From Enterobacteria phage FrSaffron, in the sequence record PP430141.1: a DNA stretch of 3,552 nucleotides; one strand, 5' to 3'. Under the pieces are notes generated by a model. That model saw nothing but the letters and a program-made list of their open reading frames with translations, had not been told where the DNA came from and searched no databases. Every line of letters starts with the position of its first letter. Position 1 is the first letter of the stretch. This document shows positions 1 to 3,552 of this stretch, in pieces. A program made the translations under genes and the position numbers.

Positions 1-5
1 GGGTG

Positions 6-23
6 GGACCCCTTTCGGGGTCC
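6..23 (+). promoter_or_regulatory. 5'-terminal stable hairpin (replication/packaging element of the plus strand)
   Basis: Seen in sequence: GGACCCC (6-12) pairs with GGGGTCC (17-23) around a UUUC loop (13-16), giving 7 consecutive pairs. The helix can extend with G-U pairs toward 1-5/24-28. Its role is established knowledge for MS2-like phages. Confidence 0.7.
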
Positions 24-115
24 TGCTCAACTTCCTGTCGAGCTAATGCCATTATTTATGTCTTTAGCGAGACGCTACCATGGCTATCGCTGTAGGTAGC
101 CGGAATTCCATTCCT

Positions 116-121
116 AGGAGG
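116..121 (+). promoter_or_regulatory. Shine-Dalgarno sequence of the maturation gene
   Basis: AGGAGG at 116-121, about 8 nt upstream of the ATG at 130. Confidence 0.8.
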
Positions 122-129
122 TTTGACTC

Positions 130-1311
130 ATGCGAGCTTTTAGTGTCCTTGATAAGGAATCCGAGACCTTTGTTCCTTACGTCCGCGTTTACGCTGACGG
201 AGGGATTGAGGATAACTCGTTTTCTCTAAAATACCGTTCGAACTGGACTCCTGGTCGTTTTAAGTCGACTGGGGCCAGAACGAAGCAGTGGCACTACCCG
301 TCTCCCTACTCTAGGGGGGCGCTTAGCGTCACGTCGGTAGATCAAGGCGCCTATAAGCGCTCAGGGTCATCGTGGGGTCGCCCGTACGAGGAGAAAGCCG
401 GTTTTGGCTTCTCGCTCGACGCACGCTCCTGCTACAGCCTCTTCCCTGTTAGTCAGAATCTGACTTACATCGAAGTGCCGCAGAACGTTGCGAATCGGGC
501 GTCGACCGAAGTCCTGAAAAAGGTTACCCAAGGCAATTTCAACCTTGGTGTGGCCTTAGCAGAGGCTAGGTCGACAGCCTCACAACTCGCGACGCAAACC
601 ATTGCGCTCGTGAAGGCGTACACTGCCGCTCGTCGCGGCAACTGGCGCCAGGCGCTCCGCTATCTCGCCCTAAACGAAGATCGAAAATTCCGATCAAAAC
701 ACGTGGCCGGCAGATGGTTGGAGTTGCAGTTCGGCTGGCTACCGCTCATGAGCGATATCCAGGGCGCATATGAGATGCTTACGAAGGTCCACCTTCAAGA
801 GTTTCTTCCTATGAGAGCCGTGCGTCAAGTAGGCACTAACGTCAAGTTAGACGGCCGCTTGTCGTATCCAGCTGCAAACTACCAGACTACGTGCAACATA
901 TCGCGACGAATCGTGATATGGTTTTACATAAACGATGCACGCTTAGCCTGGTTGTCGTCTCTAGGTATCTTGAACCCACTAGGAATAGTGTGGGAAAAGG
1001 TGCCTTTCTCATTCGTTGTCGACTGGCTCCTTCCTGTTGGAAACATGCTCGAGGGCCTTACGGCCCCCGTAGGATGCTCCTACATGTCTGGAACAGTTAC
1101 TGACGTAATAACGGGTGAGTCCATTATAAGCGTTGACGCTCCCTATGGGTGGACAGTGGAGAGACAGGGCACTGCTAAGGCCCAGATCTCAGCCATGCAT
1201 CGAGGGGTACAATCCGTATGGCCAACAACTGGCGTATACGTAAAGTCACCTTTCTCGATGGTCCATACCTTAGATGCGTTAGCATTAATCAGGCAACGGC
1301 TCTCAAGATAG
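130..1311 (+). CDS. mat: Maturation (A / assembly) protein, the pilus-binding minor virion protein
   Basis: 393-aa ORF starting MRAFS..., ending with TAG at 1309-1311. Position, length and sequence match the MS2 A protein as I recall it. Strong SD upstream. Confidence 0.93.
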   Translation: MRAFSVLDKESETFVPYVRVYADGGIEDNSFSLKYRSNWTPGRFKSTGARTKQWHYPSPYSRGALSVTSVDQGAYKRSGSSWGRPYEEKAGFGFSLDARSCYSLFPVSQNLTYIEVPQNVANRASTEVLKKVTQGNFNLGVALAEARSTASQLATQTIALVKAYTAARRGNWRQALRYLALNEDRKFRSKHVAGRWLELQFGWLPLMSDIQGAYEMLTKVHLQEFLPMRAVRQVGTNVKLDGRLSYPAANYQTTCNISRRIVIWFYINDARLAWLSSLGILNPLGIVWEKVPFSFVVDWLLPVGNMLEGLTAPVGCSYMSGTVTDVITGESIISVDAPYGWTVERQGTAKAQISAMHRGVQSVWPTTGVYVKSPFSMVHTLDALALIRQRLSR

Positions 1312-1324
1312 AGCCCTCAACCGG

Positions 1325-1347
1325 AGTTCGAAGCATGGCTTCTAACT
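1325..1347 (+). promoter_or_regulatory. Coat-gene initiator hairpin with the AUG in the apical loop
   Basis: Seen in sequence: AGTTCGAAGC (1325-1334) pairs with GCTTCTAACT (1338-1347) with one C/U mismatch (1329/1343). The loop is AUG (1335-1337), the coat start codon. This matches the known MS2 coat initiation hairpin. Confidence 0.7.
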
Positions 1348-1727
1348 TTACTCAGTTTGTTCTCGTCGACAATGGCGGAACTGGCGACGTGACTGTCGCA
1401 CCAAGCAACTTCGCTAACGGGGTCGCTGAATGGATCAGCTCTAACTCGCGCTCTCAGGCTTACAAAGTAACCTGTAGCGTTCGCCAGAGCTCTGCGCAGA
1501 ACCGCAAATACACCATCAAGGTCGAAGTGCCAAAAGTGGCTACCCAGACCGTTGGTGGTGTAGAGCTTCCTGTAGCCGCATGGCGTTCGTACTTAAATAT
1601 GGAATTAACTATTCCTATTTTCGCAACGAACGCCGACTGCGCGCTTATTGTTAAGGCGATGCAAGGTCTCCTGAAAGATGGAAACCCAATCCCCTCAGCA
1701 ATCGCAGCAAACTCCGGAATCTATTAA
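1335..1727 (+). CDS. cp: Major coat (capsid) protein, also the translational repressor of the replicase gene
   Basis: ATG at 1335 begins MASNFTQFVLVDNGGTGDVTVAPSNFANGVAEWISSNSRSQAYKVTC...SGIY (130 codons). It ends with tandem stops TAA (1725-1727) and TAG (1728-1730). Sequence is recognisably MS2-type coat. Confidence 0.95.
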   Translation: MASNFTQFVLVDNGGTGDVTVAPSNFANGVAEWISSNSRSQAYKVTCSVRQSSAQNRKYTIKVEVPKVATQTVGGVELPVAAWRSYLNMELTIPIFATNADCALIVKAMQGLLKDGNPIPSAIAANSGIY

Positions 1728-1905
1728 TAGATTCCGGCCATTCCAACATGAGGATTACCCATGTCGAAGACAACAAAGAAGTTCAACTCTTTATGTATTG
1801 ATCTTCCTCGCGATCTTTCTCTCGAAATTTACCAATCAATTGCTTCTGTCGCTACTGGAAGCGGTGATCCGCACAGTAGAGACTTTACAGCAATTGCTTA
1901 CCTAA
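1678..1905 (+). CDS. lys: Lysis protein L (single-gene lysis protein), overlapping the coat 3' end and replicase 5' end in the +1 frame
   Basis: 75-aa ORF METQSPQQSQQTPESINRFRPFQHEDYPCRRQQRSSTLYVLIFLAIFLSKFTNQLLLSLLEAVIRTVETLQQLLT. It has a polar, basic N-terminal half and a hydrophobic C-terminal segment (LYVLIFLAIFL...LLLSLL). Coordinates match the MS2 L gene as I recall it. Confidence 0.88.
   Translation: METQSPQQSQQTPESINRFRPFQHEDYPCRRQQRSSTLYVLIFLAIFLSKFTNQLLLSLLEAVIRTVETLQQLLT
1714..1737 (+). repeat. Perfect 24-nt palindrome / RNA hairpin spanning the coat stop codons (coat terminator hairpin)
   Basis: Seen in sequence: CCGGAATCTATTAATAGATTCCGG equals its own reverse complement. As RNA it is a 9-10 bp stem with the coat UAA (1725-1727) and UAG (1728-1730) in and next to the loop. 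Confidence 0.85.
1746..1764 (+). promoter_or_regulatory. Replicase translational operator (TR hairpin; coat-protein binding site and packaging signal)
   Basis: Exact ACATGAGGATTACCCATGT: stem 1746-1750/1760-1764, bulged A1751, pairs 1752-1753/1758-1759, loop AUUA 1754-1757. The replicase AUG (1761-1763) lies within the stem. Identical to the canonical MS2 operator. Confidence 0.92.
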
Positions 1906-3398
1906 GGGATGAGTTGCTTACTAAGCACCCGTCCTTAGGAAACGGTAATGACGAGGCGACCCGCCGGGCTCTAGCTATCGCTAAGCTCCGGGAGGCGAAT
2001 GAGCGTTGCGGCCAGATTAACAGAGAAGGTTTCTTACATGACAAATCCTTGTCATGGGATCCGGATGTTTTACAAACCAGCATCCGTAGCCTAATTGGCA
2101 ACCTTCTCTCTGGCTACCGCTCGTCGTTGTTTGGGCAATGCACGTTCTCCAACGGTGCCTCAATGGGGCACAAGTTGCAGGATGCAGCGCCTTACAAGAA
2201 GTTCGCTGAACAAGCAACCGTTACCCCCCGCGCTCTGAGAGCGGCGCTACTGGTCCGAGACCAGTGTGCGCCGTGGATCAGACACGCGGTCCACTACAAC
2301 GAGTCATATGAATTTAGACTCGTGGTAGGGAACGGAGTGTTCACAGTTCCGAAGAATAATAAAATAGATCGGGCTGCCTGTAAGGAGCCCGATATGAATA
2401 TGTACTTACAGAAGGGAGTCGGTACCTTTATAAGGCGCCGTCTCAAATCTGTGGGTATAGACCTGAATGATCAAACGATCAACCAGCGTCTAGCTCAAAA
2501 GGGTAGCGTAGATGGTTCGTTGGCGACGATAGACTTATCGTCAGCCTCCGACTCCATCTCCGACCGCCTGGTGTGGAGTTTCCTCCCACCTGAGCTATAT
2601 TCATATCTTGACCGCATCCGCTCTCACTACGGAATCGTAGATGGAGAGACGATACGGTGGGAACTATTTTCCACTATGGGTAACGGGTTCACTTTCGAGC
2701 TAGAGTCCATGATATTTTGGGCAATAGTGAAAGCGACCCAGATCCATTTTGGTAACGCCGGAACCATAGGCATCTACGGGGACGATATTATATGTCCCAG
2801 TGAGATTGCACCCCGTGTGCTAGAGGCACTTGCCTACTACGGTTTCAAACCGAATCTTCGTAAAACGTTCGTGTCAGGGCTCTTTCGCGAGAGCTGTGGC
2901 GCGCACTTTTACCGTGGTGTCGATGTCAAACCGTTTTACATCAAGAAACCAGTTGACAACCTCTTCTCCCTTATGCTGATCATGAATCGGCTTAGGGGTT
3001 GGGGAGTTGTCGGAGGTATGTCAGATCCGCGCCTTTATAAGGTTTGGGTACGACTGTCCTCCCTGGTTCCATCGATGTTCTTCGGTGGGACGGACCTTGC
3101 TGCCGACTACTATGTAGTCAGTCCCCCTAATGCGGTCTCAGTTTACACTAAGACTCCATACGGGAGACTACTCGCGGACGCCCGTACCTCGGGTTTCCGT
3201 CTTGCTCGTATCGCAAAAGAGCGTAAGCACTTTAGCGAGAAGCATGACAGTGGTCGCTACATAGCATGGTTCCATACTGGAGGTGAGATCACCGACAGTA
3301 TGAAGTCCGCTGGCGTACGCGTAATGCGTACTTCGGAGTGGCTGACGCCGGTTCCCACATTCCCTCAGGAATGCGGGCCAGCGAGCTCTCCTCGGTAG
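1761..3398 (+). CDS. rep: RNA-dependent RNA polymerase (replicase beta subunit)
   Basis: 545-aa ORF MSKTTKKFNSLCIDLP... ending with TAG at 3396-3398. The catalytic YGDD motif is encoded at 2775-2786 (IGIYGDDIICP). The start codon is embedded in the operator hairpin. Confidence 0.95.
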   Translation: MSKTTKKFNSLCIDLPRDLSLEIYQSIASVATGSGDPHSRDFTAIAYLRDELLTKHPSLGNGNDEATRRALAIAKLREANERCGQINREGFLHDKSLSWDPDVLQTSIRSLIGNLLSGYRSSLFGQCTFSNGASMGHKLQDAAPYKKFAEQATVTPRALRAALLVRDQCAPWIRHAVHYNESYEFRLVVGNGVFTVPKNNKIDRAACKEPDMNMYLQKGVGTFIRRRLKSVGIDLNDQTINQRLAQKGSVDGSLATIDLSSASDSISDRLVWSFLPPELYSYLDRIRSHYGIVDGETIRWELFSTMGNGFTFELESMIFWAIVKATQIHFGNAGTIGIYGDDIICPSEIAPRVLEALAYYGFKPNLRKTFVSGLFRESCGAHFYRGVDVKPFYIKKPVDNLFSLMLIMNRLRGWGVVGGMSDPRLYKVWVRLSSLVPSMFFGGTDLAADYYVVSPPNAVSVYTKTPYGRLLADARTSGFRLARIAKERKHFSEKHDSGRYIAWFHTGGEITDSMKSAGVRVMRTSEWLTPVPTFPQECGPASSPR

Positions 3399-3408: not shown

Positions 3409-3552
3409 GACCCCCGTAAACGGGGTGGGTGTGCTCGAAAGAGCACGGGTCCGCGAAAGCGGTGGCTCCACCGAAAGGTGGGCGGGCTTCGGCCCAGGGA
3501 CCTCCCCCTAAAGAGAGGACCCGGGATTCTCCCGATTTGGTAACTAGCTGCT
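3399..3552 (+). other. 3' untranslated region, truncated at the window end (lacks the extreme 3' terminus)
   Basis: No ORF; GC-rich and highly structured. It ends ...GGTAACTAGCTGCT, which is the 5' half of the terminal hairpin in MS2 as I recall it. Confidence 0.85.
3431..3495 (+). other. Array of four tetraloop-capped hairpins in the 3' UTR
   Basis: Seen in sequence: GTGCTC-GAAA-GAGCAC (3431-3446), CCGC-GAAA-GCGG (3451-3462), CCACC-GAAA-GGTGG (3468-3481), GGGC-UUCG-GCCC (3484-3495). A further hairpin CCCCG-UAAA-CGGGG lies at 3412-3425. Confidence 0.75.

Follow-up and report, generated by a model that had tools for sequence, protein, structure and literature searches.

The AUG Start of the Maturation Gene in Enterobacteria Phage FrSaffron as a Natural Polymorphism of MS2-Group Phages

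Introduction

The maturation (A) protein gene of Enterobacteria phage FrSaffron (PP430141.1) opens with ATG, at a site where MS2 has a GUG start. This raises the question of whether the codon is a natural variant, an engineered change or an error in the record, and whether the leader in front of it makes up for the different start. Knowledge that the A-protein start is AUG in R17-like phages and GUG in MS2 goes back to the earliest sequencing of RNA phages. Here, we place the FrSaffron start site among its relatives, compare its leader with that of MS2 and weigh the possible consequences for A-protein synthesis.

Genome Organization and Strain Identity

The window, i.e., the whole stretch of DNA analysed, comprises 3552 nt. 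It covers nearly all of the genome of a levivirus of the MS2 group (Emesvirus zinderi) and is collinear with the group over its full length. The genes follow the order maturation, coat, overlapping lysis and replicase, as in Emesvirus zinderi (genogroup I, plus strand of ~3.57 kb), and the four products each matched their Pfam family (Phage_mat-A, Levi_coat, Phage_MS2_lysis and RNA_replicase_B; E < 1e-38). Coordinates of the genes and of the leader elements are collected in Table 1.

Table 1. Genes, initiation signals and RNA elements of the window.
Feature	Position	Strand	Remarks
5′-terminal hairpin	1–28	+	12 bp, 1–12 with 17–28; in every predicted fold; sequence as in MS2
Predicted metastable (kinetic-trap) hairpin	25–43	+	Window 19–48 folds as GCUC.AC.....GU.GAGC, −6.5 kcal/mol, same as MS2
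Upstream complementary sequence (UCS, AACUUCCU)	29–36	+	Predicted long-distance pairing with SD region 116–123
West arm of 5′ cloverleaf	37–73	+	T54A and A57T at apex; fold −10.1 vs. −9.9 kcal/mol in MS2
South arm of cloverleaf	74–100	+	Predicted fold; compensatory pairs in GA and KU1
East arm of cloverleaf	102–114	+	Predicted fold
Shine-Dalgarno (SD) AGGAGGU (AGGAGGT in DNA) of maturation gene	116–122	+	Read from sequence
7-nt spacer UUGACUC	123–129	+	Holds in-frame TGA 124–126, and T128 and C129 linked to the ATG allele
ATG start codon of maturation (A) protein gene	130–132	+	Read from sequence; opens the Phage_mat-A ORF
Maturation (A) protein gene	130–1311	+	393-aa/393-codon ORF; Pfam PF03863 Phage_mat-A, E = 1.2e-201
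Coat gene	1335–1727		Internal in-frame ATG of listed ORF 1218–1727
Lysis gene	1678–1905		ORF list
Coat-protein operator hairpin at replicase start	1729–1764		Rfam RF02359, 60.6 bits vs. gathering score 40
Replicase gene	1761–3398		ORF list

The closest genomes in the phage collection searched are FrHenna and FrBlood (94.9% identity) and MT830620 (94.8%). FrHenna, MT830620, DL1, DL16, J20, R17 and MS2 all show 92–95% identity to the window across 100% of its length, the MS2 reference reaching 92.4% overall. No record was found for the exact maturation protein of the window. Since this protein is unrecorded and the nearest record is only ~95% identical, the window is, on sequence comparison, a distinct MS2-group strain, not recorded before and ~5% away from anything in the phage collection searched.

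Several features of the record lie outside the start site. The window ends in ...GGTAACTAGCTGCT, the final 17 nt of MS2 (TGGCTAGTTACCACCCA) being absent, and FrHenna (3551 nt) is cut at nearly the same 3′ point. Coat residue 99 (window 1632–1634; initiator Met uncounted) is Ala (NADCA) in the window, Ser in MS2, R17, ST4, M12 and JP501, and Asp in the cluster of J20, DL and Fr strains; the Ala is found in none of the 13 strains compared with the window. Nine clustered mismatches to NC_001417/V00642 at 3451–3463 amount to a 2-nt (CC) register shift around the GCGAAAGC hairpin. In this interval, the window is matched exactly by R17, ST4, the resequenced MS2 stocks and most field isolates; J20, FrHenna and FrBlood are one base off, and DL52 is not collinear there. 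Judging by these alignments, the oddity belongs to the old MS2 reference record and probably reflects an early sequencing error. A promoter and terminator scan of window positions 1–400 found nothing; such a scan is irrelevant for an RNA genome.

The Maturation-Gene Start Site

The window reads ...CCTAGGAGGTTTGACTCATGCGAGC..., in which the A of the ATG is position 130. The earlier note on this DNA had taken this codon to open the maturation gene, and it does begin a 393-codon Phage_mat-A ORF, and the CDS annotated in MS2, FrHenna and other genomes lies at the same coordinates. No upstream start is possible for the gene because of the in-frame TGA at 124–126, and the ATG is the first start codon past it. 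The GUG that the earlier note gives for MS2 is likewise correct: NC_001417 (MS2 reference) and resequenced MS2 stocks carry GACCT-GTG at the coordinates of the window's GACTC-ATG. Compared with MS2, the window thus has three linked substitutions at the start (C128T, T129C and G130A), i.e., a three-base haplotype; the start context of MS2 sensu stricto, GACCU-GUG, is absent from the window, which has GACUC-AUG. The SD AGGAGGT upstream is unchanged in 15 of 15 aligned MS2-subgroup records, and fr has AGGGAGC there.

Two further start codons deserve mention. A 49-codon ORF (window 80–229) begins with an ATG at position 80, within the South arm and out of frame with the maturation gene; this ATG is kept in every strain checked but M12 (TTG), and the ORF gives no sign of translation. 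In LT898437 (L007), the lysis gene starts with GTG instead of ATG (1678–1680), so ATG/GTG toggling also occurs at a second gene of the group.

Distribution of Start Haplotypes

For a single codon, allele frequency among relatives is the relevant test, and chance is not. An alignment was made of the first ~175 nt of the window and 16 group I records, for which the start codons given in the annotation were also compared. We also queried three exact 35-mers, differing only at 128–130, against the phage collection; as megablast requires a 28-nt exact word, each of them detects its own haplotype only.

The window's haplotype, GACTC-ATG, was found in 10 records (DL1, J20, DL16, DL52, JP501, M12, LT898437, MT830620, FrBlood and FrHenna). 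All of these are isolates other than the MS2 stock, and the 35-mer GAATTCCATTCCTAGGAGGTTTGACTCATGCGAGC, with SD, spacer and ATG, is identical in them. GACCT-ATG occurs in a single record, that of R17. GACCT-GTG was detected in 220 records, all named MS2 and including strain ST4; they are mostly host-labelled laboratory lines, 184 of them from E. coli TOP10 F′. The fr maturation gene also starts with GTG, in another context, and its GenBank record states 'gtg start codon'; the group II phages GA and KU1 have an ATG start. Within the phage collection and the aligned records, a GTG maturation start is confined to MS2-named records and fr. An exact-pattern search of IMG/VR returned one contig, of the MS2 laboratory type with GTG, and a like search of metagenome contigs returned none.

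Across a natural sample that is small (~13 lineages), these sequences identify ATG as the usual allele of wild MS2-group phages and GTG as that of the laboratory MS2 lineage. At the maturation start, laboratory MS2 does not typify the group to which it belongs. Conversion of GTG to ATG at this position was seen in 0 of ~220 MS2-named records, the GACCT-ATG 35-mer having matched R17 only, a weak hint against strong pressure in either direction in the MS2 background.

The polarity of the change was addressed by neighbour joining over the first 2 kb, with fr as the root. In the MS2 subgroup, TC-ATG stands on all of the deep branches, and CT-ATG (R17) and CT-GTG (MS2, ST4) are nested within one clade. 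Within this subgroup, AUG is the common state and, by parsimony, probably the ancestral one. GTG, being nested in the single R17/MS2 clade of the fr-rooted tree, looks derived and peculiar to the MS2 lineage. Because the outgroup fr itself has GTG, polarity is clear only inside the MS2 subgroup, and the deep group I ancestor is ambiguous.

Engineering or Error as the Origin of the ATG

The earlier note had allowed for two origins of the ATG, a natural strain variant or an engineered change. An engineered ATG, e.g., in a cDNA clone altered for more A protein, would have to coexist with a three-base haplotype and flanking 35-mer that recur unchanged in 10 isolates outside the MS2 stock. The window is also at least 5% away from each record searched, with ~85% of the changes at third positions, unlike a mutated MS2 clone. 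The latter figure comes from the comparison with FrHenna, which differs from the window at 180 sites, ~85% of them third codon positions (64/78 in the maturation gene, 18/20 in the coat gene and 69/78 in the replicase gene). Since the differences are mostly of this kind, they point to natural divergence under purifying selection and not to engineering, an origin that we regard as scarcely credible.

That position 130 was misread or misassembled might be suspected from the record itself, which is imperfect in missing 17 nt at the 3′ end. However, the three linked bases match the haplotype of 10 other records, and neither the ORF nor the N-terminal protein sequence is disrupted, leaving an error with a negligible probability. 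The third-position pattern and the haplotype common to 10 isolates together make either engineering or a base-calling error very unlikely. Of the two origins, it is the natural variant that agrees with the shared haplotype and the third-position divergence. The view of the ATG as unusual or possibly engineered finds no support, as ATG is found in wild-type MS2-group phages (the 10 isolates and R17).

Leader Architecture and Folding

Over leader nt 1–126, the window equals MS2 but for two loop changes, T54A and A57T. Minimum free energy folding gives one and the same structure for the leaders of the window, MS2 and R17, including the 29–36:116–123 pairing, and the SD has an unpaired probability of ~0.02 in the predicted equilibrium fold. 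A fold predicted from the alignment keeps the UCS–SD pairing via compensatory changes in fr, GA and KU1. The 3′ portion of the metastable hairpin, MS2 nt 37–45, is present in the window, where nt 1–53 are identical to MS2. Bases 124–135, the start codon included, are unpaired in predicted leader folds of up to 135 nt. A search for a curated Rfam family covering the 5′ leader gave no match, the operator hairpin alone being matched. According to these models, the leader control apparatus is intact in the window, with the polymorphic bases immediately beyond its edge.

The substitutions T54A and A57T are unique to the window, both positions being invariant in 16 of 16 other group I leaders aligned, fr included. 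In the window, the apical stem of the West arm is predicted to shorten from 4 bp to 3 bp and its loop to grow from 3 to 5 nt, with the energy unchanged.

Is the AUG Compensated?

The earlier note had expected an AUG to raise A-protein translation unless leader structure offset it. We rejected such leader-based compensation: apart from positions 54 and 57, nt 1–126 are those of MS2, and both leaders are predicted to sequester the SD in the same fold. Sequence comparison and folding against MS2 found no structure in the regulatory leader that compensates for the AUG. We also exchanged the alleles in silico between the window and MS2, modelling each version both at equilibrium and under blockage of the UCS. 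Across all swaps, the behaviour of the SD is alike, and it is sequestered (unpaired probability ~0.02). The predicted shift in start-codon accessibility runs in opposite directions in 200-nt and 400-nt contexts, so no robust effect of the allele emerged.

Compensation might instead reside downstream, with positions 128–130 co-evolving with coding bases, especially 155, so as to keep a helix 127–136:148–156; this helix, holding the start codon, would tune A-protein output to the MS2 level. In a 175-nt MS2 fold, 127–131 and 133–136 indeed pair with 148–156, and 88.9% of the helix cells are standard pairs across 11 distinct sequences. Moreover, C128:G155 of MS2 is replaced by U128:A155 in most ATG strains, and G130–U153 by A130–U153. 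However, covariation in the helix does not exceed controls (165 of 500 shuffles reach it), the pair 129:154 is broken in 9 of the 11 sequences, and R17 (C128, A155) departs from the 128:155 pairing pattern. A155 is explained equally well by a competing local hairpin 146–150:154–158, for which covariation is not above controls either. The predicted accessibility of the start codon flips sign between the 200-nt and 400-nt contexts, and the 148–156 region is coding, so its substitutions are codon-constrained. We therefore find downstream compensation improbable.

A related and quite doubtful proposal is that start-codon identity is not neutral, AUG with UC at −2/−1 and A155 being one co-adapted set and GUG with CU and G155 the other. 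If this were true, the helix 127–136:148–156 would adjust ribosome loading in the brief interval before the UCS–SD pairing closes, and both haplotypes would yield the same A-protein dose by different routes. Co-adaptation of the start codon with downstream bases is possible but unsupported. The AUG/GUG difference is an ordinary natural polymorphism, already known, and no structural consequence of it was detected.

Proposed Control of A-Protein Initiation

In published work, the MS2 5′ UTR is described as a cloverleaf in which SD–UCS pairing at the base closes the ribosome-binding site (PMC4615214). A metastable hairpin sequesters the UCS and delays closure, allowing translation only from nascent strands (PMC4615214); for the hairpin function, this source summarises van Meerten 2001, and for UCS–SD cloverleaf and kinetic-trap control as a whole it refers to Groeneveld 1995, Poot 1997 and van Meerten 2001.

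We consider, with a probability of about 0.9, that the window site is the ordinary maturation-gene initiation site of a wild MS2-group levivirus, carrying the common GACUC-AUG haplotype and expected to be governed by its leader as in MS2. In the folded genome, the SD would be locked by long-distance pairing to the UCS at the cloverleaf base. On nascent plus strands, the metastable hairpin would hold the UCS briefly, by analogy with the published MS2 work. Since the SD would be locked once the genome is folded, we propose that ribosomes start on nascent plus strands only. The start codon lies just 3′ of the UCS–SD pairing and is uninvolved in it, so AUG or GUG would set only the efficiency of an already exposed site.

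In E. coli, GUG is a less efficient initiator than AUG, and for this reason AUG strains may make somewhat more A protein per nascent strand. Judging from published MS2 work, the gain in initiation with AUG is probably modest. A reporter study grouped AUG, GUG and UUG together, initiating at 10–100% of AUG (bioRxiv 10.1101/063800). In the literature searched, nothing specific was found on how A-protein yield from the native leader differs between an AUG and a GUG start.

The attribution of low A-protein yield to a weak GUG cannot be extended to the group, since in most relatives the leader-folding control is retained alongside an AUG. The occurrence of AUG with the same leader control in most relatives fits the view that folding kinetics, and not start-codon strength, is the main limiter.

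Comparison with Known Systems

The closest systems are M12, JP501, DL1, DL16, DL52, J20, LT898437, MT830620, FrHenna and FrBlood, which have the start-site 35-mer, gene order and coordinates of the window. Their genomes are 5–8% divergent from it, and T54A and A57T occur in the window alone.

R17 agrees with the window in the AUG start, the SD and the spacing, and its leader is the same except for the window-specific positions 54 and 57; it differs at −2/−1, which are CU in R17 and MS2 and UC in the window. The R17 A-protein ribosome-binding site with its AUG was reportedly sequenced by Steitz in 1969.

MS2 shares the predicted cloverleaf, long-distance pairing and metastable hairpin with the window, but its start is a GUG preceded by CU, whereas that of the window is an AUG preceded by UC. 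The GUG maturation start of MS2 is said to have been reported by Volckaert and Fiers in 1973.

Phage fr, of the same genus and with the same gene order, shows ~76% identity to the window over the first 2 kb. Its GTG start stands in a different SD/spacer context (AGGGAGCCTCGT-GTG), and the UCS–SD pairing is retained with compensatory change.
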